Assembly: GCA_041577335.1 (NCBI GenBank)
Contig: JBFGJH010000023.1
Span: forward strand, 1-40,590
Reading direction: 5' to 3'
Length of the DNA stretch: 40,590 nt
DNA from: Acidimicrobiia bacterium
GTDB lineage: Bacteria > Actinomycetota > Acidimicrobiia > Spongiisociales > JAENVV01
Shown here: in pieces, positions 10,270 through 33,173 of the stretch
Numbering within the stretch: position 1 is the stretch's first letter
Layout: each line of letters opens with the position of its first letter
The notes under the pieces: generated by a model
Told to the model about the DNA's origin: nothing
The model's input: only the letters and a program-made list of their open reading frames with translations
Databases searched by the model: none
Made by a program: the position numbers and the translations under genes

Positions 10270-10815
10270 CCCGCGAGCCGGTGTCCGTCGAGGTCGGTGC
10301 GGGATGGCGACGGGGTGCTCTCGATGCGATCGGCTTGCTTCGCTTTGTCAGTTCAGCCGGGTGGCAACTGGTTCGATGAGCGGTGTTGTGTCGAGCACAT
10401 CAGTTGGAGCGCCGCCCAACCCCCTCGTTTCAGGGTTCGATGAGGGTGATCCGCACCCGCCGGGCGGCCGGGCCAAGGTCCTCGGAACCGCAGGACGAGC
10501 TCGAGCGTGCCATGCCGCCGACAGGGGTGAACCCTCGATCGAGCGGCGTCGTCGCGCTGCGGAGATTCGTGCCGGGTCGTGTTTCTGGAGGTGGCCTTCC
10601 CTCGCTGGCCCGCCTGGAGGTTGATCGTGTCGGCCTGGGAATCTGTTAGCGTGACGCCAGCCACGTCGGGTGGAGGCCAGCGATCACGTCGCTTCCCCGG
10701 CGGATCACGGCAGCACGTTCTCACCGGTTGGACTGCCTCTTCGGCCGACACTCGATCCTGTCCATTCCTGGGCGCGCGGTCGAGTGAGATACGCCAAGAC
10801 AGGAGAAGTCACGCC

Positions 10816-14688: not shown

Positions 14689-15684
14689 ATGACCGGGCAA
14701 CCGGAACTAGTCGAGGGAGGCCCATCCGAGCTCCGGGCCGCGCTCGAACGCCTGCGGCTCGGCGGAGCCATCTTTCTTCGGGCCGAATACACCGACGGAT
14801 GGTCGTACGAGTCACCTCCAGCCGAGGACCTCATCGGGCTGCTCCAGCCCGACGCCCGACAACTGATCCTGTTCCACATCGTTGCGCGGGGAGGCTGCTG
14901 GATCGAAATCGACGGCGGGGAGCGGCATTGGGCGTCGGAGGGCGACGTGATCGTGCTTCCATATGCGGATCGGCACCGCATGGGCGGCTCCTCCGCTGCT
15001 CCATCTGTTCCCATCGCATCGCTTCTCGACCCTCCTCCTTGGGACCGGCTGCCGGTTATTCGCCATGGTGACGGAGGCCCGCGGACCGACATCGTCTGTG
15101 GTTACTTGCACTCTGTCGATCCGTTGTTCGACCCCGCTATGCAGGCGCTGCCCCCGGTTTTCGTCGTCCGTCCGTCGAGCGTCGCCTCTCAGTGGGTCAG
15201 GGCATCTATCGACTATGCGCTCGAGCACGCCGCCCCACCCGCCAGTGTTTCGGACAGCGCGGTTGCCACTCGACTGCCGGAGCTACTGCTCATCGAGATC
15301 CTCCAACAGCATCTCTCCACGGCACCGGCGGGCGATCAAGGGTGGCTCGCGGCCCTCCACGATCCCATTCTGGCTCCGGCGATGTCGCTCATCCATCGAC
15401 ACCCCGAGCGGAAATGGACCGTTTCCGAACTGGCAGGAGAGGTCGCTGTTTCCCGATCAGTGCTCGACGATCGCTTCCGGCGGATCCTGGGAAGATCGCC
15501 GATCCGCTACTTGGCCGACTGGCGCATCCACCTGGCGCGAGATCTCCTCGCCAACACCGAGGTCACTGTCGGAGCCATCGCAGCCCGAGTGGGCTATGAC
15601 TCCCAGGAGGCATTCAGTCGCGCCTTCAAACGGGCGTCGGGGAGCGCCCCTAGTCGCTGGCGGGACCTGCGGCGGTCCCGCTGA
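14689..15684 (+). CDS. AraC-family regulator with N-terminal cupin domain
   Basis: FHIVARGGCW, GDVIVLPYADRH, IVCGY; WTVSELA...VSRS and VGYDSQEAFSRAFKR HTH motifs. Confidence 0.92.
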   Translation: MTGQPELVEGGPSELRAALERLRLGGAIFLRAEYTDGWSYESPPAEDLIGLLQPDARQLILFHIVARGGCWIEIDGGERHWASEGDVIVLPYADRHRMGGSSAAPSVPIASLLDPPPWDRLPVIRHGDGGPRTDIVCGYLHSVDPLFDPAMQALPPVFVVRPSSVASQWVRASIDYALEHAAPPASVSDSAVATRLPELLLIEILQQHLSTAPAGDQGWLAALHDPILAPAMSLIHRHPERKWTVSELAGEVAVSRSVLDDRFRRILGRSPIRYLADWRIHLARDLLANTEVTVGAIAARVGYDSQEAFSRAFKRASGSAPSRWRDLRRSR

Positions 15685-16221
15685 CGCGGTGCACAAATTG
15701 TCAAGCCCAACGATGCCAGGGGCGCCGTCTATCTTCCGGCACGCGGTCGAGAGGTGCTTCCACACGGTCGAGGTCGCTGCCCCATGCACGCGCGCACCGT
15801 CCATCGGAGGCAACGTTTGCGCCCAGATCGGCGCGCCGCCATTCCTGGCGAGAACTCTCCGAAGGACACATTGACGAAACCGAACCAACAATCCCCACGT
15901 CGTCGGATGTGGACACCGAATACCGGTTTGCTTCTTCGCCGGCAGCCGTGATCGTGAGAGGTGATGAGAATGTGCGGCCGAGCCGGGTCGCATCCGGTGA
16001 TCTGCCAGCATCAGAAGCTGTTGAGCCTAGGTCGAGGCGGCGGATGATGATTCGGTGACAGCGCCGAAAGGCTTCTGGCGACGCAGATCGCGGGCAGTTG
16101 CAGCGACCTTGTGCAACCCGTATCCTTCCCGCAGGTCGGTGGACCGGAGTGGCTGAATGCCACTGTGGCGCTCATTTCCGACCCGGGGCGCCGGCCTCCC
16201 TTTAGAAAGGATGGCCAAACG

Positions 16222-17346
16222 ATGCGTTACGTGAGGCTTCTCGCGTCGCTCTGTGCCTTGGCGCTAGTGGCTGCTGGGTGTGGTGGCGACGATTCTTCCG
16301 CAGAGAGTGCTCCGACAGGATCTGACGTCGAGCAGGTCTTTTTCATTTTGGACTGGGTACCTAAGGGGCAGACCGCTCCATTCTTCGTGGCTCTCGACAA
16401 GGGGTTTTGGGCCGATCGCGGCCTCGCTGTTCAGATGACGCGAGGTTACGGGTCGGGCGACACGTCCGACCGGATCGGTATCGGGGAAGGGGACTTCGGA
16501 TTCGCCGACGCAGGCGTTGTCATGAACAAGGTGAGCCAAGGACTGCCGTTGGTTGAGATCGCGGCAATTGCCTCCACGGTGCCCGTTGCGGCCTACATCG
16601 ACCCGGCAGCCGGCGTTATGAACCCTCAAGACATGGTGGGGCTCAAGGGTGCAGTAGATGCCGGAGACGGGAACGACAACACCTTCAAGGCGTGGGCGCC
16701 TTCGGTCGGAATCGCATACGACGATATCGACTGGCAGTACACCGATGGCGCCAACATCACTTCTGTGGCGTCCGGACAGGCGGATTTCGTGATGGACTGG
16801 ATCACGAACATTCCAGAGTGGTGGCTGGCGGATCCACCGATTGAGCCCGACATCCAGTGGATCGGCTATGACATCGGCGTCTACGGTAGCGGCCTCATCA
16901 CCCGTCCCGAGGTTTTGGAGTCGAAGCCTGACGTTGTGCAAGCCTTTGTGGAAGGCGCAATGGCCGGGTTCGAATACGTGATCGAGGGTGGGCCCGAGGC
17001 CCGCGAAGAGGCCATAGACATCCTTTTCAAGTACAACCCGGAGATCGCCGAGCAGCCCAACGCGCGTGAATTCCACTCGGGGAATCTGGATTTGTTCCTG
17101 ACGTTGATGCTGACTGACGAGGTTCGTGATGGCGGGCTCGGGTACTACGAACCCGAGAAGCTGGACCTCACCCTCGACTTCATGAACGAGTTCCTGATCG
17201 AGGGGCCCGATGTGACGGCCGACGATGCGTTCGCCAACCTGGTCGATGAGGGTCAGGTCAAAATCGACAACTTCGATGAGGCACTTGAGTCTCTCGAGAT
17301 GGTGCTGGGCCGGCCCAACCCGCTCATGCCGTACATCCAGCCGTAA
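16222..17346 (+). CDS. ABC transporter substrate-binding lipoprotein, NMT1/THI5 (NitT/TauT) family
   Basis: Lipobox-like VAAGC; LDW.P....PFFVALDKGF....GL.V....G.GS; YGSGLI; start ATG 16222. Confidence 0.88.
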   Translation: MRYVRLLASLCALALVAAGCGGDDSSAESAPTGSDVEQVFFILDWVPKGQTAPFFVALDKGFWADRGLAVQMTRGYGSGDTSDRIGIGEGDFGFADAGVVMNKVSQGLPLVEIAAIASTVPVAAYIDPAAGVMNPQDMVGLKGAVDAGDGNDNTFKAWAPSVGIAYDDIDWQYTDGANITSVASGQADFVMDWITNIPEWWLADPPIEPDIQWIGYDIGVYGSGLITRPEVLESKPDVVQAFVEGAMAGFEYVIEGGPEAREEAIDILFKYNPEIAEQPNAREFHSGNLDLFLTLMLTDEVRDGGLGYYEPEKLDLTLDFMNEFLIEGPDVTADDAFANLVDEGQVKIDNFDEALESLEMVLGRPNPLMPYIQP

Positions 17347-17357
17347 GACCAACGGGC

Positions 17358-17392
17358 GAGGAGGCGCCACACACCCTGTGTGGCGCCTCCTC
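17358..17392 (+). repeat. Perfect 16-bp inverted repeat between the SBP and ATPase genes (likely mRNA-stabilising or attenuating stem-loop)
   Basis: gaggaggcgccacaca-ccc-tgtgtggcgcctcctc; no U-tract. Confidence 0.8.
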
Positions 17393-17420
17393 TGCCCCAT
17401 AACACTGAAGGCATCGCTCC

Positions 17421-18224
17421 ATGGGAATCCGCCTCGACGCGATAAGCAAGGTCTTCGAGACCGAGGACCTCACGGTGGAGGCGTTACGTGGCGTGTCAGC
17501 GGTCGTCAACGACAACGAGTTCGTCAGCATCATTGGGCCCAGTGGGTGCGGCAAGAGCACGTTGCTCCGTCTCATCTCGGGCCTGACACCACCAACGCAG
17601 GGTTCGGTCTTTCTCGATGGCGTCGAGGTTGATGGACCGATGGGCAACATCGGGTTCGTGTTTCAGGCACCGACCTTGCTCAAGTGGCGGACCGTCTTCA
17701 AGAACGTGATGTTTCCGTATGAGGTACTCGCTTCGCAGCGGAAGGCACCCGCAGGGAAACAAGAGTTCGAAGAGAGGGCGCGCAAGCTGCTGAAGATGGC
17801 AGGCATTGAGGAGTTCACAGATGCCTATCCGAAACAGCTGTCGGGTGGTATGCAGCAGAGAGTCTCGATTTGTCGTGCGCTGATCCACGATCCCACTCTC
17901 CTGCTCATGGACGAACCCTTCGGCGCGCTCGACGAGTTCACTCGTGAGCGGATGAATGAAGAACTGCTCCGCATCTGGCATGAGACGACCAAGACCGTTG
18001 TGTTCGTCACCCATCACATTCCGGAGGCGGTCTTCCTCTCGGACCGGGTGTTCGTCATGTCACGCCGCCCCGGAACGATCCTGGGTGAGGTGACGATTGA
18101 TCTTCCGAGACCCCGGACTCCGAAGATGCGTGAGAGCGTTGAGTTTCTCGACCGGGTCGTCGAGACTCGCCATCTGATAGGCCTCGGCTCGGGGGCCGAG
18201 CTCCTGAGCGAAGATCCGGCGTAG
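17421..18224 (+). CDS. ABC transporter ATP-binding protein (NitT/TauT family)
   Basis: GPSGCGKST, LSGGMQQR, LLMDEPFGALD, VTH. Confidence 0.96.
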   Translation: MGIRLDAISKVFETEDLTVEALRGVSAVVNDNEFVSIIGPSGCGKSTLLRLISGLTPPTQGSVFLDGVEVDGPMGNIGFVFQAPTLLKWRTVFKNVMFPYEVLASQRKAPAGKQEFEERARKLLKMAGIEEFTDAYPKQLSGGMQQRVSICRALIHDPTLLLMDEPFGALDEFTRERMNEELLRIWHETTKTVVFVTHHIPEAVFLSDRVFVMSRRPGTILGEVTIDLPRPRTPKMRESVEFLDRVVETRHLIGLGSGAELLSEDPA

Positions 18225-19043
18225 ATGACGACCGATCTCGACACTGCGGCACCGCCATCCGAAGAACCAGTACCAGTTCAACCCGGACGCAGCGTCGAGC
18301 GCATCCGAAAGTTCGTGGATCCAGCCGTGTTCGCCGTTCTGATCGTCATCGGCTGGCAAGTCGTCATTTGGATCTTCGATTTCCATCCAGTCGTTCTACC
18401 GCCGCCTTCTCGCGTGTGGACGGTTCTCAGCACGCAGGGCGATTTCCTCGTCGAGAGCATGCTCGACTCGTTGCGGACGATCCTGTGGGGCTTCTTCTAT
18501 GGGAGCCTTCTCGGATGGCTCGCCGGGGTTGCCATCACCTACTCACCAACCGTGCGCAAAGCAATCCATCCGATCCTGGTCTCGCTCTTTGTGGTGCCCA
18601 AGGCGATATTCCTTCCCCTCCTCATCATCTGGTGGGGCGTCGGTGGATTCCCCGATCACAAGATCGTCGTGACGATGCTCCTGGCGTTCTTCCCGGTAAC
18701 GGAAAACACGATTGCCGGCCTATCGGGCGTCGAGCGCGAGATGGTGGAGCTCAGTCGTTCACTGGGTGGCAGTTCCCTGTTCCTGTTCCGCAAGATCGCC
18801 CTGCCCTTCTCGATCCCGTTCGTGCTGGCCGGATTGCGGATCGCCATGACCGAGTCGTTCATCGGGACATTGTTTGTCGAGATCCTCGTACCCAATGAAG
18901 GCATCGGCTCGCGCATCGTCGACGCACAGGACGTGTCGAATACGCAATTCATCATCGCTGCGATCCTGGTCATAGCCATCTTCGGGCTGGCCGCCTATTT
19001 CCTGCTGCAGTGGATCGAACGGAGGCTGACGAAGTGGTACTGA
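18225..19043 (+). CDS. ABC transporter permease (NitT/TauT family)
   Basis: LPPPSRV, VPKA..LPL...W.G, FFPV, EAA-like loop. Confidence 0.92.
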   Translation: MTTDLDTAAPPSEEPVPVQPGRSVERIRKFVDPAVFAVLIVIGWQVVIWIFDFHPVVLPPPSRVWTVLSTQGDFLVESMLDSLRTILWGFFYGSLLGWLAGVAITYSPTVRKAIHPILVSLFVVPKAIFLPLLIIWWGVGGFPDHKIVVTMLLAFFPVTENTIAGLSGVEREMVELSRSLGGSSLFLFRKIALPFSIPFVLAGLRIAMTESFIGTLFVEILVPNEGIGSRIVDAQDVSNTQFIIAAILVIAIFGLAAYFLLQWIERRLTKWY

Positions 19044-19852
19044 GAAGCGATCCCGCCCTCAGGGCCCCCACGGCGTGGCTGCCCGCGGTGTTGCGTGGCC
19101 TCTGGAACGCCAAAGAGCTGATCCTCACGCTCTTCGCGGCGGTGCTGGTCTGGATCCTCCTTGTTGAATTCGGAGACTTCCACCCGATCGTGCTCCCGAC
19201 GCCGGCCGCAGTGGTGGGCGCACTCGTTGGCGACTGGAGCATCCTCGCGCGGGAGACACTGTGGTCCTTCTACGAGATGTTGCTGGGGTTCACCTTGGGC
19301 GGTTCTCTAGGGTTCCTGCTAGCGATCGGTATCTTCTATTCGCCGTTCCTGCACCGTGCTGTCTACCCGTTCGTGTTCGGATTTCGGGTCGTCCCGAAAG
19401 TTGCCTTCCTTCCTCTGTTCCTCGTGTGGTTCGGGATCGGCCTGACGGTCAAGGTGGTGATGGCCGGCACCGCTGTCTTTTTCCTCGTTTTGGTGCAGAC
19501 GCTGCTGGGGCTCATGACGGTCGACCCGAGCCTCGTGGAATTCGGCAAGTCACTGAAGATGAAAGAGGCGTCGTTGCTACGCCGCATCCGAATTCCTGCT
19601 GCACTCCCGGCCATGATGGTCGGTGTGAAGATGGGCATCACGTACGCGCTGACCAACGTCGTCGTCGCGGAAATGGTCGTGTCGACCAACGGGCTCGGGT
19701 TCCTCGTCGTCCGGGCACGCCAGCAGGCCAGAACCGACTCGATCATCGCGGTGATCATCGTGACTGCCGTGGTGGGAATCCTCGTCTATCAGCTTGGTCG
19801 CGCCGTCGAGAAGCGAACGACCTTCTGGTACTTCGAAGAACACAGCGGATAA
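19034..19852 (+). CDS. Second ABC transporter permease (NitT/TauT family)
   Basis: LPTPAAV, VPKVAFLPLFLVWFG, IPAALP, VVAEM...NGLG; GTG 19034 after GGAGG. Confidence 0.9.
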   Translation: MVLRSDPALRAPTAWLPAVLRGLWNAKELILTLFAAVLVWILLVEFGDFHPIVLPTPAAVVGALVGDWSILARETLWSFYEMLLGFTLGGSLGFLLAIGIFYSPFLHRAVYPFVFGFRVVPKVAFLPLFLVWFGIGLTVKVVMAGTAVFFLVLVQTLLGLMTVDPSLVEFGKSLKMKEASLLRRIRIPAALPAMMVGVKMGITYALTNVVVAEMVVSTNGLGFLVVRARQQARTDSIIAVIIVTAVVGILVYQLGRAVEKRTTFWYFEEHSG

Positions 19853-19869
19853 GACCCGACCGGAGGCCC

Positions 19870-21195
19870 ATGACTGTTCAATACATCCGTGACTCGCACG
19901 CTTACGATGGGGTACCGCCCTGGGGGGCCAGCGCCGGCGATTTCGTGTTCTTCTCTGGTGGCATCGCTGCCGATCCGGTCGACGGGATCCCGCCCGAGAT
20001 AGCGCCCACACCCACCTACCCATACCACGGCTCCAGCATCGACCGTCAGCTGCGGTACGTGTTCAGCAAGATGGGCAACGTGTTGGAGCAAGGCGATTCC
20101 AATCTGAAACGGATCATGAAGATCTCCACCTACCAGACCGTGACTGGCGAGATCGATCACGCGTTGCGGATGCGCCGTGAGTTCTTCGAGGTGGAGAAGC
20201 CACCGCCCAGCACCTTGCTGGTCGTGCCGGCGTTGGCGGTCCCCGGCCTGTCCGTCACCAACGAGGTGATCGCCCTCAAGACGGCCGCCGACCGTGACCG
20301 GTCGGTGCTGCACGCGCCACAAGACGACAGTCCGCTGCCAATGCTCGACACGATCTATCAGCGGCCGATATTTGTGCAGGCGGCCGCGGGGGGCGGCCTC
20401 GTGTTCACGTCAGGGCTCACAGCGGCCAATCTCATCCTCAAGCGCTTCCACGAGCTGCCCGATGTGCGGGGGATGCTTCCCAAGCACGCCGATTTCCCAC
20501 ACCGGCTGTACGAGATCAAGTACCAGACCCGGCTGACGCTGCTGTACCTGCGACGGATTCTCGAGAGGATGAACGCCACGCTCAACGACGTCGTGAAGGT
20601 CGAAATCCATATGACCAATGCCGAGGACATCGCTGGTATGGAGGAGGCCTGGAACGAGTTCTTCCCCACTGCGCCGCCCGCGCGTAGCGTCTACATCACA
20701 GACCTCGCCCCGACCGAACAGCTCATAGAAGTCGAGGTCATCGCAAAGGACCCCGAAGGCCCCTACCAAAAGGAGACGATCACTGCCCCGACCGTCCCGA
20801 GCTACCTGGGCGGCGTGCCCCATGCGGTCCGGGTCGGGCCGTACGTGTTTTTCTCGGGTCTGCTGGCGACCGATCACGAGACCGGCCTGGCTCCAGCGGC
20901 GCGGGTTGACCCGCAGTTCCCGCATCATTCATCCTCGGCGAAGCGGCAGGCGGCGTACATCATCGAAACTATCGACGCCATCTGTAAGGCTGCCGGCACA
21001 TCCAAGGATCAGCTTGTCCGGCGGCGCACGATGCACACCGACTTGGAGGAGTTCGGGCCGGCCGAGGATGCTTGGTTGGAGGCCCTCGGGTCCAGCCTGC
21101 CGCCAACCACCGTTTTCCAGACGCCCGGTCCATTGCCGGTGCCGGGCTGCACTATCGGCTACGACATCATCGCGTTCGCGCCCGACCGCACATGA
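19870..21195 (+). CDS. Rid/YjgF-superfamily protein with three tandem domains (copy 1, 441 aa)
   Basis: Three units with G..VF.SG ... Q ... PP.(S/R/T) ... (E/D).IA; ATG 19870 after GGAGG. Confidence 0.85.
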   Translation: MTVQYIRDSHAYDGVPPWGASAGDFVFFSGGIAADPVDGIPPEIAPTPTYPYHGSSIDRQLRYVFSKMGNVLEQGDSNLKRIMKISTYQTVTGEIDHALRMRREFFEVEKPPPSTLLVVPALAVPGLSVTNEVIALKTAADRDRSVLHAPQDDSPLPMLDTIYQRPIFVQAAAGGGLVFTSGLTAANLILKRFHELPDVRGMLPKHADFPHRLYEIKYQTRLTLLYLRRILERMNATLNDVVKVEIHMTNAEDIAGMEEAWNEFFPTAPPARSVYITDLAPTEQLIEVEVIAKDPEGPYQKETITAPTVPSYLGGVPHAVRVGPYVFFSGLLATDHETGLAPAARVDPQFPHHSSSAKRQAAYIIETIDAICKAAGTSKDQLVRRRTMHTDLEEFGPAEDAWLEALGSSLPPTTVFQTPGPLPVPGCTIGYDIIAFAPDRT

Positions 21196-21354
21196 TCTCA
21201 GTGCGGTTGGCGCGGCCAGCCCGGACCGGCCGGAGGTCGCAAGGCTGATCGACGGCCGTCGCGTGCGATGGGAGGGCAGAGATGGGCGCTGAAAGTGGCA
21301 AACGACGCAAATGCGGTGTTCGCCGTGCCAGTGCGGGTGTCATGAGGAGGACGC

Positions 21355-22683
21355 ATGGGCGGACAGGCCAAGATCGTTGAGTTTGTGAGCGGTCGCGAGC
21401 TTGGTCTTCCTACGGAGATGTTGCACCAGAGTGCCGCCGTCCGTTTCGGCGACTTCTGCTTTCTCTCCGGTATTCGCGCCACGGATGAATTCGACGTCTT
21501 GGTGGCCAAGGCCCGGCCGGCGGCCGGCCGCCCTTTCCACAATTCGCCGGCCGAATTGCAGGCGAAGGTGGTGCTGGATCGGCTGGCTCGAGCGATGGAG
21601 GCACTCGGGGGGACTCTCGAGGACGGTGTCTACATCGAGCAGTACTTCACATCCAGGTCGCATTTCGAGCCTTATAGAACGGTAGGACGCGAATTCCTCC
21701 CAAATGATCGCCCGCCCAGCACTGCCCTGCCGTGCCACGCGCTGTCCTCGCCAGATGCGGTCCTCGAGGTGGATCTGACGGCAATGATCACGGCCGCCGA
21801 ATCGACCCGGCAGCGTATTTCGACGGCCGCATCCCCGAAGGTCCTCGGTGGCTACGCGCAGGGTGTACGGGTGGGGGAGTGGATCTTCCTGGCGGGAGCC
21901 ACCCCAGCCGACCACACACAAACTTCGGCTCCGTATCCGGGAGGGCTCGGGACCGCGCTGGCACCGGAGGCACGGGTCGATCCCAACCTCTGGTACGGCT
22001 CGGCCATTGAACGCCAGGTGGAGTACATCATGCTGAACAAACAAGCGACGGTCCTCGAAGCGGCTGGATCGTCCTTGGGCCGGATCGTCAAGGCAGACGT
22101 CTACCTCTCGCACCCCGGTGAAGATCTCAACGGCTTTCACAGGGTGTGGCGCAGTCTGTTCGGGGACGCTGCACCGGCGACGACTGTCATCCCGGCTGAC
22201 GGATTCGGCAGCGAGGGAAGCCGGGTGGAGATAGGCATCGTTGCGCTGGCGGACGACGGGGACATCGAAATCGACCGACTCATGTTGTCAGGGGCGGCCG
22301 CTCCACTGGGGCCGTACCCTCACGCCGTCAGCGCGGGAGACCTTCTCTTCGTGTCGACCTTGATGGCCGCCGATGATGATGGCCTGGTCGCGGCGGCGAA
22401 GCCAGGAAGAACGTCGAGGAATGTGCGTCCCCAAATCGTCGACGAACTCGAGTATTGCTTTGGCTTGTTGAGGGAGATCTGCACGGCCGCCGGAACCTCG
22501 CTGGCACATGTTGTTCGGCGGAAGAACTTCTTCACAGATCTGTCCGATCTATATGCGGCCGACGTAGAGGCAAGAAAGGCCTGGCCGGCGGCTCCGCCAG
22601 CGAGCACCAACGTCGGCGTGAGCGGACCGCACATCGTCCCGGATGCCCGGGTGGCTATGGATGTCGTGGTTGCGGTGCCATAA
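21355..22683 (+). CDS. Rid/YjgF-superfamily protein with three tandem domains (copy 2, 442 aa)
   Basis: GDFCFLSG / GEWIFLAG / GDLLFVS starts; RPPST / APATT / PPAST; LEVDL / VEIGI / VAMDV ends; GAGGAGG RBS. Confidence 0.85.
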   Translation: MGGQAKIVEFVSGRELGLPTEMLHQSAAVRFGDFCFLSGIRATDEFDVLVAKARPAAGRPFHNSPAELQAKVVLDRLARAMEALGGTLEDGVYIEQYFTSRSHFEPYRTVGREFLPNDRPPSTALPCHALSSPDAVLEVDLTAMITAAESTRQRISTAASPKVLGGYAQGVRVGEWIFLAGATPADHTQTSAPYPGGLGTALAPEARVDPNLWYGSAIERQVEYIMLNKQATVLEAAGSSLGRIVKADVYLSHPGEDLNGFHRVWRSLFGDAAPATTVIPADGFGSEGSRVEIGIVALADDGDIEIDRLMLSGAAAPLGPYPHAVSAGDLLFVSTLMAADDDGLVAAAKPGRTSRNVRPQIVDELEYCFGLLREICTAAGTSLAHVVRRKNFFTDLSDLYAADVEARKAWPAAPPASTNVGVSGPHIVPDARVAMDVVVAVP

Positions 22684-22810
22684 GCGCGCGGCAGAAGCCA
22701 CCATGGGCCCGCCGCACATCCGGCTACCATGAGTCACCCGCGCTCGAGGGAGGAGCGAGTGCCGAACCCCAGGGCCCACGCTCGGCCGGACCGATTCGAA
22801 GGACGCGCCT

Positions 22811-24190
22811 GTGGCTAGCCCGGGACCTAACCCCTTGGCCCAAACCATTGATGGTGGCGGGACGCGAGGGCCCTTTCTGTTCACCGGGACCATCACTCCG
22901 CATGATCCGGACACCGGTGCTTTGATGACCGGCTCGATATCGCTTCCCGCGGAAGCTGAGCACCACCTGGCAAAGGCTCGTTTTGGCACCAATCTGCGGG
23001 ATGTTCCGACCGATACGGCCCGAGCCCAAGCTTGGGTGATCTATCAGTGGTTGGCCGCTCTGCTGGATGCGCACGGAGCCGATCTCACGCGACTCGTTCG
23101 GCAACGTTTGTATCTTCGTGACCTTCGGGACGTCGCAGCGGTGGAGCGAATGATGGACGTGTTCATTCCTGGAGCCAAGCCGACGACAACCATCGTGCAG
23201 ATGCCGGTACACGGCGTCGATGAGCGAATCCGGGTCGTGCTCGAAGCGGTCGCCTTGGAGACGGACTGTTCATGGGAGCGCACGGAGATCAGGCTGTCGG
23301 GAATCGGCGAAACCGATCGATATCCCCAAGCGATTCGTACCGGACCTTACGTGTGGGTGGGCAACACCGTCGCGATGGACCCGGCCAGCAGGTCTCTCGT
23401 CAGCACATTGGCCGACGTTGACGCGCCGTCATTTCAATGGACGGCGCGGCGCCGCAGTGAAGAGGAGATCCTGGCGCAAACGCTGGCGACGTTCACAAAT
23501 ATGAGCTCAGTCCTCGCTACGCAGGGGGCAACTCTGGCCGACATCATCAAGGTGAACGGTTGGATGTCCTTTCTCATGCGTGACTACCGGCCGCTCGGAG
23601 AAGCGCGCCAGGCCTTGTACCCGGCGGGGACCGCCGTCCCTGCCAGCTCATCGGTCACGATGGCGGGCCAACTTCCGGAGGGTGCCCTCATCAGCTACGA
23701 GGCCGTTGCCCTCGTGCCGGGGTTCGCAGGGTACGAGCATCGCGCGATGGCCGGACCGTCGGGCATGTCCAGCGTGTATACAGCCGTTCGGCAGGCGGGA
23801 CCTTATGTTTTCACATGTGGCGACGTGCCGGTCGACACGGCGAAACCCGCAGTGATCGCGAGCCCGGAACATCTTCAAGGTGACGCCCGTTACTTGGCGT
23901 TCGGCCGATTCCACGCCGAATCGCGTATCCAGGTCCAGGCCTGGGATGTCTACGAGCGGCACGCTGTGAGCCTCGGCCTGCACGGCGCCTCATTCGCCGA
24001 CGTCGTCTACCAAACGGTGTACATGCGAGATCCGTCCCGATACCCGGCACTGGAGCGGGTGGCGGCCGAGTTCTTCGGAGGGCGGATACCGCCAACCTCC
24101 ATCGTGCCGATCGTCGACACGTCACCATACTGGGAGACCGATCTCGAGATCGAGGTGGTCGCCTACGCGCCGGCGGACGGCGACGATTGA
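22811..24190 (+). CDS. Rid/YjgF-superfamily protein with three tandem domains (copy 3, 459 aa)
   Basis: GPFLFTG / GPYVWVG / GPYVFTCG; KPTTT / VPASS / IPPTS; LEAVAL / YEAVAL / LEIEVVA. Start uncertain. Confidence 0.82.
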   Translation: MASPGPNPLAQTIDGGGTRGPFLFTGTITPHDPDTGALMTGSISLPAEAEHHLAKARFGTNLRDVPTDTARAQAWVIYQWLAALLDAHGADLTRLVRQRLYLRDLRDVAAVERMMDVFIPGAKPTTTIVQMPVHGVDERIRVVLEAVALETDCSWERTEIRLSGIGETDRYPQAIRTGPYVWVGNTVAMDPASRSLVSTLADVDAPSFQWTARRRSEEEILAQTLATFTNMSSVLATQGATLADIIKVNGWMSFLMRDYRPLGEARQALYPAGTAVPASSSVTMAGQLPEGALISYEAVALVPGFAGYEHRAMAGPSGMSSVYTAVRQAGPYVFTCGDVPVDTAKPAVIASPEHLQGDARYLAFGRFHAESRIQVQAWDVYERHAVSLGLHGASFADVVYQTVYMRDPSRYPALERVAAEFFGGRIPPTSIVPIVDTSPYWETDLEIEVVAYAPADGDD

Positions 24191-24209: not shown

Positions 24210-25232
24210 ATGATCATCGATACCCACACCCACCACATGCCCAGGACCTTTCTCGAGCGAGCAATGGCCGAGCCGGACCGATATCGGGCGAACGTCGTCG
24301 ACCAAGGCGGCGGGTTGTTCGAGATGCGACCCGACTTCTGGACCAGCGCACGTTTCACCGCGGTCTACCGGTTTGAGCCGATCTATTACGACTGGGCAGC
24401 CCGGGTCCGGCATATGGACGAGCACGGCATCGACGCAGCTGTCGTGAGTATTGGGCAGGCGACGAACTACGCGTGGGCGCCGGCAGACCTGGCTCGCGAA
24501 GTGGCCGCGTTCTCCAACGACGATCTGGCACGCGGCAGCGCCGAGTTCCCCGGTCGGATCTACGGGATAGCCCAGGTGCCGCTGCAAGACCCCGCCGGAG
24601 CGGTCGACGAAGCCACGAGAGCCGTGCAAGAACTTGGCCTGAAAGGCGTCCAGCTGTTGTCGAGCGTTGAGGGCCGCAACCTGGACCAGATCGGGTTCGA
24701 TCCGGTCTATGCGCGGATTGAGGAGTTGGGCGTTCCGATCTTTCTGCATCCGTATGGCATATTGAACGAAGCGCGCATGAGCGACTATTACCTCGCCAAC
24801 GTGGTGGGATTCCCGGCCGAACAGGCGATGGCGGCAGCTTCGTTGATCTTTGGTGGTGTGTTGGACCGTTATCCGGGTCTGCGTGTCTTGCTGGCTCACG
24901 GGGGCGGCGCGTTTCCCTACATCCTGGGCAGGATCGCACGTGGCTCGGAGGTCCTCTCGGACCAGATGAGGACGGACCACCCGGTGCGGGATTATCTCGA
25001 CCGGTTCTACGTCGACACGCTGATCCACGACGACGCCGCGCTCGGATACCTCTTCGACACGATTGGCCCCGATCACATCGTGCTCGGGACAGACTGGCCC
25101 TATTGGATGATGGATCCAGATATGTTCCCGCGTTTGGAACGGGTGGCGGCCGAACGCGGGATCGACGGCGCCACGGTGCTCGGTACGGTGGCGGCCCGGC
25201 TGTTCGACCTGCCCACCCAGCCGGCCTCTTGA
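24210..25232 (+). CDS. Amidohydrolase_2 family metalloenzyme (ACMSD-like decarboxylase/hydratase)
   Basis: IDTHTH, FLHP, AHGGG, GRI, GTDWP. Confidence 0.88.
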   Translation: MIIDTHTHHMPRTFLERAMAEPDRYRANVVDQGGGLFEMRPDFWTSARFTAVYRFEPIYYDWAARVRHMDEHGIDAAVVSIGQATNYAWAPADLAREVAAFSNDDLARGSAEFPGRIYGIAQVPLQDPAGAVDEATRAVQELGLKGVQLLSSVEGRNLDQIGFDPVYARIEELGVPIFLHPYGILNEARMSDYYLANVVGFPAEQAMAAASLIFGGVLDRYPGLRVLLAHGGGAFPYILGRIARGSEVLSDQMRTDHPVRDYLDRFYVDTLIHDDAALGYLFDTIGPDHIVLGTDWPYWMMDPDMFPRLERVAAERGIDGATVLGTVAARLFDLPTQPAS

Positions 25233-25299: not shown

Positions 25300-25998
25300 T
25301 CAGATGAGTGTAGATGCCAGGTAGGAGACCGCCGCCATGACGGTCGTGACTGTTGCGTACTTCTGATGCAGCTCGAAGAGGTTCGCCGAGTGGGATGTCC
25401 CACTTCGATCGAAGGTTGCTTCTCGAACCACGAACGGGTTGAGGTTGTAGGAGAAGGCGTCCACCACGGAAGCGCGGACACAACCACTCGTCGAGCCGCC
25501 CGCCACCAGCAACGTATTGACTTGGAGTTCGATGAGCCACGAAGCCAGCGGGGTCGCAAAGAAGGCGCTGGGTTTGGTTTTGGTGATGACCAGGTCGCCG
25601 CGGTGCGGGCTGATCTCGTCGACGATGTCGTGGGCCCGAGCAGGCTCGGGGCGTTGTTCGAGCTTGCCGGCCCAGCCGCCGAGCTCCGCTCGAGCTTCCC
25701 GAGGTGAGTTGCGTGAGTACACGATCGGTATCCCGGCGGGCCGCGCAACCTCGACCAACTTTGCGATGTGGTCGACGGCCTGCCATGCGGCATCACCGCA
25801 GCTGAGGGGATATTCGTCGGTCCCCCCACGATCGCCGGTGAACGCGTAGGTCACGTCGACGATGAGCAAGGCCGGTCTCGATCCGGGCCGAGCGGTCCGG
25901 CCGTATCCCGCTGCCTGGTAGGTCGCGAGCTCGTCCGCGGGGAAGACGCCGGCAGCTAGTTCGCGAGGGTCCACCGGCGGGAGCCTGTGGTCGGTCAT
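25300..25998 (-). CDS. Isochorismatase-family cysteine amidase (N-carbamoylsarcosine/maleamate amidase-like)
   Basis: PALLIVD, KTKPSAFF.T.L, STSGCVRASVVDA (Asp-Lys-Cys triad). Confidence 0.9.
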   Translation of the reverse strand: MTDHRLPPVDPRELAAGVFPADELATYQAAGYGRTARPGSRPALLIVDVTYAFTGDRGGTDEYPLSCGDAAWQAVDHIAKLVEVARPAGIPIVYSRNSPREARAELGGWAGKLEQRPEPARAHDIVDEISPHRGDLVITKTKPSAFFATPLASWLIELQVNTLLVAGGSTSGCVRASVVDAFSYNLNPFVVREATFDRSGTSHSANLFELHQKYATVTTVMAAVSYLASTLI

Positions 25999-26960
25999 TT
26001 GAGTTCCTCGAGGCCTGCTTCTGCCAGCATCTCGAGCTGTTCGAGATACGTCTCGAACCCGAGCCGCAGGTCAAGCACCACGTGGTCCAGGCCGCGCTCG
26101 GCGAACTTGACCAACTCAGCTTTGCAGTCTGCGGGTGTGCCGGCGATCAGCAAACCTTCGAGATCGTCGATCGTTTCGAACGCTCCGGATTCCGGTCGGA
26201 TCCAGAACTTGGCCCCAGCGGAGCTGGTCGCCAGGGCTGCCACGTTGATGTCTGCTCGTGCCCGGCTCCGATCCCGGTGTACCTTCACGATGGGGATCGA
26301 TCCGACCGCCAGCGATTTGCCGGCCTCATCACAGCGCTCGCGCAAGTAGGCCATGCGAGCGTCGAGCGTCGCCAGCGGGATCCGACCCGGTAACCATCCA
26401 TCCATGTGTGCAACGGCCCTCCGTACCGCGGCCTGGGTCGTTCCGCCGTAGAACATCGGGATCGGCGCGGCGGGTTTTGGTTCGAGCGTTACGTCATCGA
26501 AATTGAAGATGGTCCCTCGGTAGGACGCGTTGTCGTGGCTCCATACGAGCCGCAGGATTTCCATGGTTTCCGTGAAGATCTGCTCTCGATCATCTCGCAG
26601 TAGACCCGCCGCTTGGAACTCGGCTGGGTTGCTGCCCAGTCCGTACCCGCCGATCACCCGTCCATTGGAGAGCACACTCAAAGCGGCCAAGTTCTGAGCT
26701 ACTTTTAGGGGCCAGCGGATGGGGATCAGCACGGCCATCCCGAGCTTCACACGAGTGGTCACCGAGCTGATCGCGGCCAGGGTCATCAGCGGCTCGATGA
26801 ACGTGAGGTCCGATCCTTCCATGCCGTGTGGCCTCCACAGGATGTGATCCCTCACCCAGACCGAGTCGTACCCGAGCTCCTCCACCCGGCGGCTTCCCTG
26901 CACGAGCGTCTCGACGTCGGCATGCTCCCCGAAGTGCGGCAGCAGTACACCGATCTCCAC
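25995..26960 (-). CDS. LLM-class (luciferase-like) oxidoreductase, probably F420- or flavin-dependent
   Basis: GVLLPHFG, GYDSVWVRDH, EP..TLAA, LSNGR, GG...AVRRA....DGW. Confidence 0.9.
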   Translation of the reverse strand: MEIGVLLPHFGEHADVETLVQGSRRVEELGYDSVWVRDHILWRPHGMEGSDLTFIEPLMTLAAISSVTTRVKLGMAVLIPIRWPLKVAQNLAALSVLSNGRVIGGYGLGSNPAEFQAAGLLRDDREQIFTETMEILRLVWSHDNASYRGTIFNFDDVTLEPKPAAPIPMFYGGTTQAAVRRAVAHMDGWLPGRIPLATLDARMAYLRERCDEAGKSLAVGSIPIVKVHRDRSRARADINVAALATSSAGAKFWIRPESGAFETIDDLEGLLIAGTPADCKAELVKFAERGLDHVVLDLRLGFETYLEQLEMLAEAGLEELK

Positions 26961-27452: not shown

Positions 27453-28352
27453 ATGGAGCTACGAGCAGAGAGGGTCGAATATCAATCTGCTCGCGACATC
27501 AGCATCGCGGCCGACCTCTACCTGCCACTCGCCCCGCAACCGCCGGCCGGCTATCCGGCCGTTGTCATCTGCCTGGGCTGGGGCAGCGTTCGCGAACTGA
27601 TGCAGCCGTGGGGTGACGCCTTGCGCGCACGTGGCTTCGCCATCCTCGTCCCCGATTATCGGGGTTTTGGCGGCAGCGGCGGTGAACGCGGCCGGTGTTT
27701 CCCCGCCGAGCACGGGGAAGACATTCGCGCTGGTCTGCGCCATACGGCAGGTCTACCGTATGTGGATTCGGCCCGTATTGCGCTCGTCGGCGTCAGTTAC
27801 GGCGGGGCGGTGGCGGTCGCAGTAGCGGGATCCGATCCAACCGCCCGCGCAGTGGTGTCGGTCGTGGGCTACGGGAGCGGGAAGCGACACCTCCAGGCCC
27901 TCCGCACCGAGAGAGAATGGCGAGCATTCATGGACCGGCTGGAGGCCGACCGGCACCGCCGGACGTGTGGTGAGGCTTCAGCTGTGATAGATCCGGACGA
28001 GATCCTCGTTCGCAACGCCGAAGCTCGTGCCTGGCGGCGGAGCGTCGAGAAGCAATTTCCGCACATGGCATTCCAGACCACGTTGGAATCGGCCGAGCGA
28101 ATAGTCGAGTTCGAGCCAGAACGGTCGTTGCCATATTCGACCCCGAAGCCCGTGATGTTCATACACGCGGAAAAGGACGAAATGATTCCGGTGGAAGAGT
28201 CGCACAGGATGTGGTCGCGCGCACAGGAACCGAAAGAGCTGGTCATCCTCCCCGGTATCGGTCACCACGAAGTGCACCGCGATGGCGGTTTCAAGCAGAC
28301 AATCGATCACATCGAGCGCTGGCTGACCCTGCATATGAGGCCGACCGCATGA
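27453..28352 (+). CDS. Alpha/beta-fold hydrolase
   Basis: DYRGFGGSGG, nucleophile GVSYG, HAEKDEMIP, GHHE. Confidence 0.9.
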   Translation: MELRAERVEYQSARDISIAADLYLPLAPQPPAGYPAVVICLGWGSVRELMQPWGDALRARGFAILVPDYRGFGGSGGERGRCFPAEHGEDIRAGLRHTAGLPYVDSARIALVGVSYGGAVAVAVAGSDPTARAVVSVVGYGSGKRHLQALRTEREWRAFMDRLEADRHRRTCGEASAVIDPDEILVRNAEARAWRRSVEKQFPHMAFQTTLESAERIVEFEPERSLPYSTPKPVMFIHAEKDEMIPVEESHRMWSRAQEPKELVILPGIGHHEVHRDGGFKQTIDHIERWLTLHMRPTA

Positions 28353-29350
28353 ACAGTCATCGTGTCAGGTTCGGGTTGGTACTGCCCCATTTCGGATCCG
28401 ATCCGACGCCGAAGCGAATACTCGATGTCGCGGTGCGGGCGGAAGAGGCCGGGTTCGATTCGCTGTGGTTGCGAGACCGCCTCGTAGCCGGAGCGCCCCA
28501 CGGCCTGATTCTCGAGGCTGGGGGCACCACGTTTTACGAGCCGCTCGTCACGGCCGCCGCGGTGGCGGCTGCGACCTCCGAGATCACAATAGGGACAGCC
28601 GTTTTGCTGCCCAACCGGCACCCTCTCCAGCTGGTCCAACAACTGGGAACGCTGGCACAACTCGCACCCCGTCGCTTGATCGTCGGCCTCGGGCTCGGCG
28701 TGGGATCCCACAACTTCGAATCGCTCGGCCTGCGGTATGAGGACCGGGACGAGTTGTTTCGGGAAACGATGACAGTGTTGCGAGGAGCAGAAGCTGGTAG
28801 TCCGCTCTTGCATTCGGGTGCCCACTTCTCGTTCGGCCCGGTGGAGATCGATCCTCTGCCCGGTAGACACCTTCCGATCTACTACGGCGGCGTCAGCCGC
28901 GCCGCCGTACGCCGGGCGGTGACACACTGTGACGGATGGATCGCAGGGAGGCTGCCCTTAGCCACCTTTGCAGCCAGATTGGACTTGTTGACCCAGCTGA
29001 CGTCTGATCCCTATCACAGGCTCGACATCGCAACCATGCCGATCACGGTCGTTGATGAGGGTGACGGCCGTCTCCTGGGGCGCGCAAACGAGGCGGTGGC
29101 GCTGCTTGCTCGAAGTGCGGAGGGGGCCAGCGATTGGTTGAGGCCCCCGTCCGGTCGGTTCGAAACGATCGAAGACCTAGCCGGTTTACTCATCGCCGGA
29201 TCTCCCGAGCGCTGCACCGCAGAAGCGCGGCGGATCGTTCAAAACGGTGTGTCTCATCTCATCTTCGACCTACGAATCGCCTTCGACGAGATCGAGCGGC
29301 AGCTCGAGCTGCTGCAGATCGTGTTGGCCGACATGGCCGAGTTTCGGTAG
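28349..29350 (+). CDS. LLM-class oxidoreductase, close paralog of 25995-26960
   Basis: GLVLPHFG, GFDSLWLRDR, AAVRRAVTHCDGW; ATG 28349 overlaps the upstream stop (ATGA). Confidence 0.88.
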   Translation: MNSHRVRFGLVLPHFGSDPTPKRILDVAVRAEEAGFDSLWLRDRLVAGAPHGLILEAGGTTFYEPLVTAAAVAAATSEITIGTAVLLPNRHPLQLVQQLGTLAQLAPRRLIVGLGLGVGSHNFESLGLRYEDRDELFRETMTVLRGAEAGSPLLHSGAHFSFGPVEIDPLPGRHLPIYYGGVSRAAVRRAVTHCDGWIAGRLPLATFAARLDLLTQLTSDPYHRLDIATMPITVVDEGDGRLLGRANEAVALLARSAEGASDWLRPPSGRFETIEDLAGLLIAGSPERCTAEARRIVQNGVSHLIFDLRIAFDEIERQLELLQIVLADMAEFR

Positions 29351-31791: not shown

Positions 31792-32258
31792 GGGTTCTGC
31801 CTCGCGAGTTCCTGAATAGCCAGAACGATATTGTGGTACCCAGTGCATCGACACAGGTTGCCCGAGATCCGCTCGCGGATCTCATGTTCGTCGTCCGATC
31901 CTCCCTCGGCCAGATACTCGACCACGGTCATGATGAAGCCCGGCGTGCAGAATCCGCACTGCAATGCGTGATGGCGAGAGAATGCGTCCTGTACCGGGTG
32001 GAGGCCGCCGTCCGGCCCGACCAGCCCTTCGATCGTGGTGACCCGGTGCCCCTCGGCCTGGACGGCCAGCATGAGGCAGGATCGCACGGAGCGGTCATCA
32101 AGCAAGACCGTGCACGCCCCGCACACCCCGTGTTCGCAGCCGAGGTGGGTGCCGGTGAGACCAGCCACATCGCGGAGGTAATCAGCCAGCGTCATCCTCG
32201 GGTCGACAGTGTCCGTTACGGGGTCGCCGTTGACTTCGAGCGTTACGTCGCGTGTCAT
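31788..32258 (-). CDS. [2Fe-2S] small subunit (CoxS/CutS-like)
   Basis: GCEHGVCGAC...SC, QCGFC, NLCRCTGY. Confidence 0.96.
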   Translation of the reverse strand: MTRDVTLEVNGDPVTDTVDPRMTLADYLRDVAGLTGTHLGCEHGVCGACTVLLDDRSVRSCLMLAVQAEGHRVTTIEGLVGPDGGLHPVQDAFSRHHALQCGFCTPGFIMTVVEYLAEGGSDDEHEIRERISGNLCRCTGYHNIVLAIQELARQNP

Positions 32259-33124
32259 GTGACCCCTGCTCGGTCGCGGGCCAAATGAAGGGCGCGTCTG
32301 GTCAGAACGTAGGCCAGGTTTCGCTTGTAGTCGGCCGGACCATGCACATCGTCGAGCGGAGCAATTGCAGGATCGACAGCCCGGGCTGCCATCTCGAAGA
32401 CCTCGTCGGCCGGCTCCTGATCGAGCAGCATCGATTCAGCGTCGGTGGCTCTGATCGGGGTCAACCCGGCAGCCATGAGCCCAATACGCGCGTCATTGAT
32501 GCGACCATCCGAGATGCGGAGCACCACGCCTGCGCCCGCCATTGCGAAATCTCCGTGCCGGCGGGCTACTTCCAGGAAGGCGGAGCCGGCACCGGCTGAA
32601 GGCAGTTGAAAGCGCAGCCTGGTCAGCATCTCGTCGGGAGCAATGCCCGACTGCATGTACCCGGAAAACATGTCCGGGCCGGCAATTGTCCGCGATGACG
32701 TCGCAGATTCGACCTCGAACTGTGCGTCGAGGAGGAGCGCGATCACGGGCCACTCCGCCGCCGGATCGGCATGAGCGATGCTCCCTCCTACGCTCCCGCG
32801 ATTGCGGATGGCGACGTGGCCGATGTGCGAGATGGCGTCCGCGATCAGGGGACACCGTTCCGCGATCCCGCCCATTTTCTCGATGGCGCGATGGCGTGTG
32901 AGGCTTCCAACGACCAGCGCGCCGTCTTCCATGTGCAGCTCGTCCAACCCGGCGAGCCGATTGATGTCGACGATGACCGCCGGCCTGGCGAGCCGGAACG
33001 CCAAGAGAGGCATGAGACTCTGGCCGCCGGCGAGGATCTTGGCTTCGTCCCCGTGCTCGGCCAGAAGCCCGAGAGCCTCTTCCCGATGTTCGGCACGCCG
33101 ATACTCGAATGGCGGCGGTTTCAC
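32255..33124 (-). CDS. FAD-binding medium subunit (CoxM/CutM-like)
   Basis: KPPPFEY, LAGGQSLMP, IRNRGSVGGS.AHADPAAE, RRHGDFA; start at GTG 33124. Confidence 0.94.
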   Translation of the reverse strand: MKPPPFEYRRAEHREEALGLLAEHGDEAKILAGGQSLMPLLAFRLARPAVIVDINRLAGLDELHMEDGALVVGSLTRHRAIEKMGGIAERCPLIADAISHIGHVAIRNRGSVGGSIAHADPAAEWPVIALLLDAQFEVESATSSRTIAGPDMFSGYMQSGIAPDEMLTRLRFQLPSAGAGSAFLEVARRHGDFAMAGAGVVLRISDGRINDARIGLMAAGLTPIRATDAESMLLDQEPADEVFEMAARAVDPAIAPLDDVHGPADYKRNLAYVLTRRALHLARDRAGVT

Positions 33125-33173
33125 CGTGCGCTCCGGACTGATGACGGTGATGGCCGGCCGAGCAGGTCGCTGG

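Follow-up and report, generated by a model that had tools for sequence, protein, structure and literature searches.

The genome of an Acidimicrobiia bacterium (GTDB lineage Bacteria; Actinomycetota; Acidimicrobiia; Spongiisociales; JAENVV01) carries three consecutive genes, here designated T1, T2 and T3, each encoding three Rid (YjgF-type) domains in one polypeptide. They lie on contig JBFGJH010000023.1 of assembly GCA_041577335.1, of which we analysed positions 1 to 40,590 of the forward strand (40,590 nucleotides, hereafter "the window"). The best explanation of the data is that each of the three is a cytoplasmic protein folded as a single-chain Rid pseudo-trimer, T2 being included through its sequence collinearity with T1. 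The three genes are two recurring partnerships merged locally, not one conserved trio. Few small proteins are as widespread as the Rid proteins, most of whose subfamilies have no known job; here three diverged triple-Rid paralogues stand side by side at one locus. The design itself already has a name and is common; the locus clearly exemplifies a lopsided, uncharacterised branch of it, and is not a new kind of system.

Three triple-Rid genes

The genes are the following.

T1: 19870-21195, + strand, 441 amino acids (aa), predicted triple-Rid pseudo-trimer with domains at about residues 1-142, 143-297 and 298-441
T2: 21355-22683, + strand, 442 aa, triple-Rid protein
T3: 22811-24190, + strand, 459 aa, predicted triple-Rid pseudo-trimer, GTG start

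The T1 start was placed at the ATG at 19870, which follows a GGAGG sequence; the open reading frame (ORF) itself is open from 19261. The ATG start of T2 is preceded by GAGGAGG. The deposited gene call of T3 is 345 aa long (75% of the ORF) and partly lacks the first Rid domain. Seven T3 relatives (35-78% identity, 449-469 aa) span 95-100% of the 459-aa reading, and the long start is therefore correct.

A sequence-only reading of this DNA had described three ORFs of 441-459 aa with three Rid units each, located directly behind an ABC importer, and had expected three hits per ORF in a hidden Markov model scan. This is what we found. PF01042 (Ribonuc_L-PSP) matches three stretches in every protein, with E-values of 1.7e-31 (T1), 2.7e-32 (T2) and 6.3e-24 (T3). 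The corresponding scores of 109.2, 111.8 and 84.7 bits are above the curated cut-off of 27.3 bits and place all three proteins in the Rid family. The importer is immediately upstream, with 17 bases between its second permease gene and T1. A six-frame PF01042 search of the organism's own 3.38-Mb assembly gave 12 matches, nine of them within T1, T2 and T3; eight of these nine domains individually exceed 27.3 bits, and the remaining domain scores 26.1 bits. The other three matches correspond to single-domain genes on different contigs: a canonical 124-aa RidA with the PPAR motif, an AmnE-like Rid and a third Rid. Scores against TIGR00004, summed over the three domains, are 91.8, 85.5 and 73.8 bits for T1, T2 and T3, all below the cut-off of 106.25.

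T1 and T2 align collinearly (26% identity over 428 columns, E-value = 5e-34). The genes are separated by 159 bases (T1-T2) and 127 bases (T2-T3). Neither gap exhibits a terminator-like or promoter-like site, and an Rfam scan of the whole window, gaps between the T genes included, gave no match.

One RidA arginine in nine domains

In RidA, imine hydrolysis requires Arg105 (S. enterica/E. coli numbering), which binds the carboxylate group of the substrate, according to Niehaus et al. (PMC4433059). The nine domains were placed in one alignment with the three single-domain Rids encoded elsewhere in the genome (canonical, AmnE-like and third). The arginine is retained in a single domain, the middle one of T1, where it is R272 within PPAR. 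The remaining eight domains exhibit P, T, A or S at this position in either of two one-column registers. The arginine typical of the RidA subfamily is thus lacking in these eight, just as the TIGR00004 scores remain below that model's threshold. Judging from these residues, T1 would have no more than one RidA-type site, and none would be expected in T2 or T3. Unequal clefts had been anticipated by the sequence-only reading, and the survival of the arginine in one of nine domains bears this out. Within T1 the middle domain stands out: P270-A271-R272 and E287 do not vary among 37 T1 relatives, and this domain accounts for 11 of the 21 invariant columns. Across the whole protein, the invariant residues include H53, S55, R102, S114, Y211, R272, E287, D335, H353 and R386.

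The same asymmetry is seen in a set of 229 full-length relatives, composed of 380-520 aa proteins from database searches and ORFs of fetched loci (rows outside this length range were discarded, as were four exact duplicates among the initial 233). The arginine is present in the middle domain of 147 relatives. It is found in the first domain of none (15 in the neighbouring register) and in the third domain of one (11 in the neighbouring register). A FastTree phylogeny of the 229 proteins exhibits a distinct T1 clade (70 members, support 0.96) and a distinct T3 clade (25 members, support 0.98); the grouping of T2 receives a support of only 0.27. All 70 members of the T1 clade possess the middle-domain arginine, against two of the 25 in the T3 clade; by subtraction, it is present in about 60 of the 115 members of a loosely defined T2 group. 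T2 and its close orthologues exhibit PATT in the middle domain where more distant relatives exhibit PPAR, which indicates that the arginine was lost in the T2 lineage.

Other conserved residues also differ among the three types. In the T3 clade eight columns are invariant, and Q223 is the sole polar residue among them. The T2 family displays many near-invariant positions at 33-40% identity, for example S122, T123, D186, W213, Q221, E292 and C376. Its first domain also contains a conserved DRPAST motif (T2 residues 117-123). The arginine of this motif is located two residues before the canonical RidA position; its own column is occupied by R in 58 of the 229 relatives, and it might face the same cleft.

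Predicted fold

AlphaFold2 models were built for T1 on a 37-sequence alignment (pLDDT 91.4, pTM 0.92) and for T3 on 18 sequences (pLDDT 86.5, pTM 0.89). In both models one strand/helix pattern is repeated three times, that is, three Rid folds per chain. Foldseek identifies chorismatases as the top solved matches of the T1 model, namely Hyg5 (5ag3, 5a3k) and FkbO (4bps), with a best E-value of 8e-13 and 10-14% identity over about 400 columns; single-domain RidA proteins rank after them. A structural comparison by VIA-align against 48,161 representative chains also puts Hyg5 (5a3k_A) first, for T1 (Z = 25.8, 288 residues aligned, root-mean-square deviation (rmsd) 3.1) as well as for T3 (Z = 25.1, 286 residues, rmsd 3.3). 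Single Rid structures match the third domain of T1 with Z of 15-19, and the first, second and third domains of T3 with Z of 9-11. FBXO22 (8ua3_C) is matched with Z of 15.3 (T1) and 14.6 (T3). Barbiturase (5hwe_A) is aligned over 270-275 residues with Z of 8.4 and 8.5 and an rmsd of 5.4, near the background stated for the tool. The models thus support a confident assignment of T1 and T3 as predicted chorismatase-like pseudo-trimers.

Sequence searches against solved structures (E-value <= 0.001) gave 26, 29 and 3 matches for T1, T2 and T3, respectively. All of these are single-domain chains of 122-165 aa, and no chorismatase or AtzD chain is among them. The best match of T2 is the 2-aminomuconate deaminase AmnE (E-value = 3.7e-11).

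The sequence-only reading had proposed that each chain folds as an asymmetric trimer with three different clefts. For T1 and T3 the models and the uneven arginine agree with this proposal; for T2 the sequence agrees with it. That reading had named two findings that would speak against it, namely fewer than three Rid folds per protein, or characterised homologues having an ordinary RidA function in the same arrangement. Neither was encountered. A prediction of a T1+T3 complex, run without controls, returned a score of 0.00, which weighs neither for nor against binding.

History of the fusion

Profile-profile comparison of the nine domain alignments pairs T1 and T2 by position: the scores are 200 for the first domains, 247-248 for the second and 301-302 for the third, each being the best in its row. 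T1 and T2 therefore inherited the fusion from a common ancestor. The T3 domains score 144-184 among themselves, against 98-140 with any T1 or T2 domain. The T3 alignment behind these values is shallow (18 rows in two subgroups), and the pattern is a lead, not a proof, that T3 was tripled separately or that its domains were homogenised within T3.

Genes surrounding T1-T3

The neighbouring genes recognised in the window are listed below, with Pfam E-values or bit scores in parentheses.

14689-15684, + strand: AraC-family regulator with a Cupin_6 sensor and HTH_18 (PF12852, 1.1e-34; PF12833, 1.3e-21)
16111-17346, + strand: binding protein of the ABC importer, NMT1/THI5-like (PF09084, 1.2e-24)
17421-18224, + strand: ATPase of the ABC importer, nitrate/sulfonate/taurine type (PF00005, 1e-33)
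18225-19043, + strand: permease 1 of the ABC importer (PF00528, 1.9e-27)
19010-19852, + strand: permease 2 of the ABC importer (PF00528, 1.2e-24)
24210-25232, + strand: ACMSD-like metal-dependent decarboxylase, Amidohydro_2 (PF04909, 1.1e-37), 19 bases after T3
25300-25998, - strand: isochorismatase-family hydrolase, amidase-like (PF00857, 1.8e-32), overlapping the upstream LLM gene by 4 bases
25995-26960, - strand: luciferase-like (LLM) oxidoreductase, F420-class (PF00296, 5.5e-44; TIGR03619, 172.9 bits, cut-off 166.9)
27453-28352, + strand: alpha/beta hydrolase (PF12146, PF12697, PF02129)
28211-29350, + strand: second LLM oxidoreductase (PF00296, 4.7e-44); the domain begins at residue 56 and the true start is probably later
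29443-31854, - strand: molybdenum (Mo)-hydroxylase large subunit (Pfam, NCBIfam)
31788-32258, - strand: Mo-hydroxylase 2Fe-2S subunit (Pfam, NCBIfam)
32255-33271, - strand: Mo-hydroxylase FAD subunit (Pfam, NCBIfam)
33174-34181, - strand: third LLM oxidoreductase (PF00296, 2.4e-50)
34256-35905, - strand: hydantoinase/oxoprolinase B subunit (PF02538, 1.6e-154)
35898-38774, - strand: hydantoinase/oxoprolinase A subunit (PF01968, 2.4e-90)

The regulator, the importer, T1-T3 and the Amidohydro_2 gene are all on the + strand with short gaps. From its position, the AraC-family gene likely regulates the cluster. The nearest solved relatives of the importer's binding protein are 4nmy, an uncharacterised protein (E-value = 1.8e-12), and the formylaminopyrimidine-binding protein 3ix1 (9.1e-11). 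Its ATPase best matches the NCBIfam models of SaoA and of taurine and nitrate transporters, all below cut-off. The decarboxylase is closest to human ACMSD (5.8e-52) and bacterial ACMSD (4e-37) among solved structures, followed by gamma-resorcylate, 5-carboxyvanillate and uracil-5-carboxylate decarboxylases. The Mo-hydroxylase belongs to the xanthine-dehydrogenase/CO-dehydrogenase family and reaches no equivalog cut-off. The hydantoinase/oxoprolinase A/B pair is of the ATP-dependent lactam-opening type, the caprolactamase models being below cut-off. The A subunit ORF has 958 aa and its Pfam domains start at residue 276; the ~275 residues before them would reflect an incorrectly placed start or an additional N-terminal region.

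The combination of LLM, isochorismatase-family, hydrolase and Rid genes led us to consider membership in the Rut pathway. This candidate was rejected, all Rut models being far below cut-off: RutC scores 39-44 bits (cut-off 169.1), RutB 65.4 bits (377.95) and RutA 32.7 bits (498.3). The RutB score is that of the isochorismatase-family hydrolase, which also scores 46 bits with biuret amidohydrolase, likewise far below cut-off. The order of the LLM and isochorismatase-family genes (25300-26960, - strand) does match the rutA-rutB gene types, for which both proteins are far below the Rut cut-offs.

The gene mix presumably fits the picolinate/nicotinate (maleamate) pathway. We take the maleamate-type gene set to comprise a Mo-hydroxylase, an Amidohydro_2 decarboxylase, an alpha/beta hydrolase, an isochorismatase-type amidase and Asp/Glu-racemase-type genes (the last found here at other loci). 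This resemblance is offered as a lead only.

Apart from this cluster, the window encodes a DEAD-box helicase (10579-12258, + strand) with a C-terminal RRM_1 domain (PF00076, 2.1e-17).

Gene neighbourhoods of relatives

Scanning one genome per species with an alignment as query located 42 loci with relatives; the T1 protein alone found none. The loci were compared by tblastn with the window genes, and Pfam was run on crude longest-ORF calls of 20 loci (108 + 97 ORFs).

Several triple-Rid paralogues per locus are common. The sequence-only reading knew of no characterised operon with three such genes in a row; runs of them do occur elsewhere. A Hyphomicrobiales metagenome-assembled genome exhibits four triple-Rid genes consecutively (L012:8123-13917 and L013:8122-13917), with a PotA/PotB-like ABC importer upstream and Amdase-like and MmgE/PrpD genes downstream. 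The entire block occurs on two contigs of this one assembly. Single-domain Rid genes (144-150 aa) also share loci with T1-type genes (L008:11392-11823, L015:5412-5861), from which it appears that fused and unfused Rids are used side by side.

The survey of homologous neighbourhoods suggested by the sequence-only reading revealed two recurrent gene partnerships. The first unites T1, T3, an ACMSD-like decarboxylase and an importer. A T1-clade and a T3-clade gene occur together in 12 of the 27 T1 loci, the other 15 having no T3-clade partner; in one additional T1+T3 locus (L028) the T1-like ORF is shortened. These T1+T3 loci come from Acidimicrobiia, Chloroflexota and several Alphaproteobacteria, hence from three phyla, and since near-identical Paracoccaceae loci make up seven of the 12 they represent about six independent lineages. 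Of the 13 T3-clade loci, 11 also contain an Amidohydro_2 gene, the case of L019 being weak and unconfirmed by Pfam. This gene usually adjoins the T3-type gene; examples are the window (19-base gap), L028 and the Paracoccaceae loci. T1 and T3 are not always adjacent: they are 7 kb apart in L001, and transporter genes lie between them in the Paracoccaceae loci. Importers vary by locus (NMT1-ABC, TctABC, TRAP or PotD-like ABC); TctC/DctP proteins are encoded at L008, L022 and L025. Cultured carriers of such loci include Pusillimonas caeni (L022) and Paenalcaligenes niemegkensis (L025). Other recurrent neighbours are FrsA-like hydrolases, LLMs, Asp/Glu-racemase/Amdase-type genes, amidase or asparaginase genes, PaaK-like ligases and CoA-transferases.

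The second partnership is that of T2 with Mo-hydroxylase and LLM genes. The closest T2 orthologues (71-73% identity) are on three metagenome contigs, and T1 and T3 are absent from the flanks of all of them. One of these contigs (L056, 13.7 kb) encodes, near the T2 orthologue, a divergent Amidohydro_2, an LLM and a hydantoinase B, together with orthologues of the window's Mo-hydroxylase large, 2Fe-2S and FAD subunits (68, 77 and 58% identity) and of its third LLM (79%). On another (L057) a Mo-hydroxylase-like large-subunit gene (35%) is found upstream of the T2 orthologue. In L054, a locus from the order survey described below, a Mo-hydroxylase-like gene (42%) adjoins a more distant T2-like gene (30%). 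Given that T1 and T3 recur together and that T2 orthologues occur without them, the trio is not a conserved unit. We also note that an LLM gene directly follows the T2 orthologue in all three contigs (L056:5470-7806, L057:4218-6238, L058:2-1859); with 24-26% identity to the window LLMs, it lacks a close counterpart there.

Abundance and distribution

A word-indexed search of 5.8 billion clusters returned 41 relatives of T1, 18 of T2 and 9 of T3. An exhaustive phmmer search with T2 against 1.84 billion representatives at 50% identity gave 1229 matches at E-value <= 0.001, 343 at <= 1e-10 and 101 at <= 1e-30; the top 150 are for the most part collinear proteins of 400-470 aa. Database annotation calls the relatives 'RidA family protein' or 'enamine deaminase RidA' and assigns no specific function to any, and a protein atlas contains them as unnamed PF01042 clusters of 427-437 aa.

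Closer to the window the distribution is patchy. With T2 as single protein query (E-value <= 1e-20), a T2-like gene was found in 10 of the 151 genomes of the window's order, its own genome included, and in none of the 18 other genomes of the same family, one of them a 98%-complete genome of the same genus. A tblastn search of plasmids with T1 (E-value <= 1e-10) gave no match. The G+C content is 0.60 at window positions 16001-20000, the region of the importer genes, against 0.63-0.66 elsewhere. The low G+C content and the patchy distribution hint that the operon was acquired.

Possible roles

We favour, with a probability of roughly 45%, the reading that T1-T3 are dedicated enamine/imine-processing enzymes of a catabolic island for a nitrogen compound, not agents of general metabolite repair. 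Starting from the observed architecture, site asymmetry and gene partnerships, we infer a substrate class, an order of steps and a catalysis as follows. The cluster would import and degrade a nitrogen-containing (hetero)cyclic or unsaturated carboxylate. This substrate would be opened or trimmed by the hydroxylase, the LLM oxidoreductases, the lactamase-type enzyme, the amidase and the hydrolase. The ACMSD-like enzyme, as ACMSD does, would strip a carboxyl group and give an unstable enamine/imine. Downstream of this decarboxylase or together with it, the single RidA-type cleft of T1 would convert a carboxylated enamine/imine by hydrolysis into a keto acid and ammonia, in the manner of AmnE and RutC. 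T3 and T2, which lack the arginine, might act on other intermediates through altered clefts, or hold and hand over labile intermediates without catalysis. If this reading is true, bacterial pathways that degrade nitrogen-containing acids would gain additional steps. In any case, the pairing of T1/T3 with an ACMSD-like decarboxylase and that of T2 with a Mo-hydroxylase provide testable handles on Rid domains that lack the arginine.

Several observations weigh against the enamine/imine-processing reading. The importer type differs among loci, and the family therefore probably serves several substrates. The arginine described in PMC4433059 as needed for RidA catalysis is missing from eight of the nine domains, and the imine-deaminase mechanism is thus without direct support in T2 and T3. 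The near-absence of invariant polar residues in the T3 clade suits binding or scaffolding as well as an enzyme. Pfam and NCBIfam recognised no ring-cleaving dioxygenase or aminomuconate-type dehydrogenase in the window, so that the analogy with ACMSD is one of family, not of pathway, and no neighbour reaches an NCBIfam equivalog cut-off. The ORF calls at other loci are crude, and many of these loci (L008-L011, L021, L023, L026) are from one Paracoccaceae lineage, so that the co-occurrence counts overstate independence.

A bolder version, which we regard as improbable, concerns T1 and T3 only. T1-type and T3-type proteins and the ACMSD-like decarboxylase would form a conserved three-protein module extending from Actinomycetota to Pseudomonadota. 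It would trap and detoxify an unstable enamine straight from the decarboxylase, or perform a new ring or C-N cleavage, the fusion having freed two of the three clefts for new chemistry as in the chorismatases.

Among the alternatives, the one that survives best, though we consider it unlikely, is that T2, T3 and perhaps T1 are non-catalytic proteins that bind small molecules, hold intermediates or regulate, in association with the decarboxylase (T3) or the Mo-hydroxylase (T2). The lack of the RidA arginine in T2 and T3 and the scarcity of invariant polar residues in the T3 clade point in this direction. So do the genomic contacts, with T3-type genes adjoining Amidohydro_2 genes (window, Paracoccaceae loci, L028) and T2 orthologues (L056, L057) as well as a distant T2-like gene (L054) lying near Mo-hydroxylase genes. 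However, the many near-invariant positions of the T2 family exceed what a passive scaffold usually needs, and Rid subfamilies without the arginine are common and not known to be inert (PMC4433059).

Somewhat less probable still is a gain of new chemistry such as occurred in chorismatases and Toblerone amidases, leading to C-O or C-N hydrolysis or to the opening of an N-heterocycle hydroxylated by the Mo-hydroxylase. This would be consistent with Hyg5 being the best full-length structural match of both models and with cluster enzymes typical of N-heterocycle breakdown. Barbiturase also aligns over 270-275 residues, and the AtzD fold has been proposed to derive from concatenated YjgF-type monomers (PMC3758960). 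Yet identity with the chorismatases amounts to 13-14%, no chorismatase or AtzD chain was returned by the sequence searches of solved structures at E-value <= 0.001, and the barbiturase Z is within the range that the tool calls common. Moreover, PF01042 still recognises all three proteins as ordinary members, and the RidA motif persists in T1.

It is doubtful that T1, T2 and T3 form one hetero-oligomer, for example stacked pseudo-trimers, acting as a single machine; this proposal is not exclusive of the others. Its attraction lies in the adjacency of the genes on one strand without a terminator-like site in the 159- and 127-base gaps, and in the co-occurrence of T1 and T3 types across phyla. 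A fixed complex is difficult to reconcile with close T2 orthologues lacking T1 and T3, with the separation of T1 and T3 in L001 (7 kb) and in the Paracoccaceae loci (transporter genes), and with the 15 of 27 loci having T1 alone. Finally, PF01042 and TIGR00004 as best family matches and the public RidA-type annotations would suit ordinary RidA-type imine scavengers protecting pyridoxal-phosphate enzymes, merely fused and triplicated, but this is very improbable in view of TIGR00004 scores below 106.25 even when summed, eight domains without the arginine, a canonical RidA encoded elsewhere in the genome, the T2 query matching none of the 18 other same-family genomes, and a location inside an importer operon. 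The sequence-only reading had likewise suggested that these may not be generic imine scavengers, and with a canonical RidA elsewhere and a patchy catabolic cluster a generic housekeeping role is indeed unlikely.

Comparison with known systems

The fused triple Rid was named '3x-RidA' by Niehaus et al. (2015, BMC Genomics 16:382; PMC4433059), with EF_0115 of Enterococcus faecalis as an example. In that paper such proteins are presumed to be covalently linked trimer units, two- and four-domain fusions are rarer, and the class is treated as part of the RidA subfamily. The single-chain design is thus not new; its relatives amount to hundreds of 50%-identity clusters. Full-text searches, with most subscription journals outside their reach, returned that paper and one unrelated hit, and found no literature characterising a triple-Rid protein. 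T1-T3 resemble 3x-RidA in having three tandem Rid domains in one polypeptide, a presumed covalent trimer, and in being uncharacterised. Compared by description only, they differ from that class in keeping the RidA arginine in one of nine domains and in TIGR00004 scores below cut-off. The arginine pattern argues against membership of the RidA subfamily proper for eight of the nine domains, and T3 appears to be a separate triplication.

The same source (PMC4433059) regards Rid enzymes with dedicated deaminase roles as established and counts chorismatase and 2-aminomuconate deaminase among the specialist activities of the family. AmnE (6izh) and RutC (3v4d) share the Rid fold with T1-T3 and process enamine/imine intermediates after ring opening. 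They are homotrimers of ~130-140 aa chains with three equal sites, whereas T1-T3 have three unequal domains per chain. In the classical pathway AmnE-type enzymes act downstream of ACMSD, and the ACMSD-like gene following T3 recalls this pairing.

AtzD and barbiturase (Toblerone fold) also contain three YjgF-like repeats in one chain and act on N-heterocycles. A concatenation of YjgF-type monomers has been proposed as the origin of the AtzD fold (PMC3758960). In contrast to the likeness of design, the structural similarity is weak (5hwe, Z = 8.4-8.5), with no sequence match and a different family.

The closest parallel in predicted structure is with the chorismatases FkbO and Hyg5 (4bps, 5a3k, 5ag3), single-chain Rid-fold pseudo-trimers and the best full-length matches of the models. 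Chorismatases are shorter (~330-340 aa, against 441-459 aa for T1-T3), the 13-14% identity corresponds to no match at the sequence level, and they serve secondary-metabolite biosynthesis, whereas T1-T3 are located with importer and catabolic genes. The fusion of a homotrimer into one chain, freeing its sites to diverge, has apparently occurred more than once, and the present locus bears on why.

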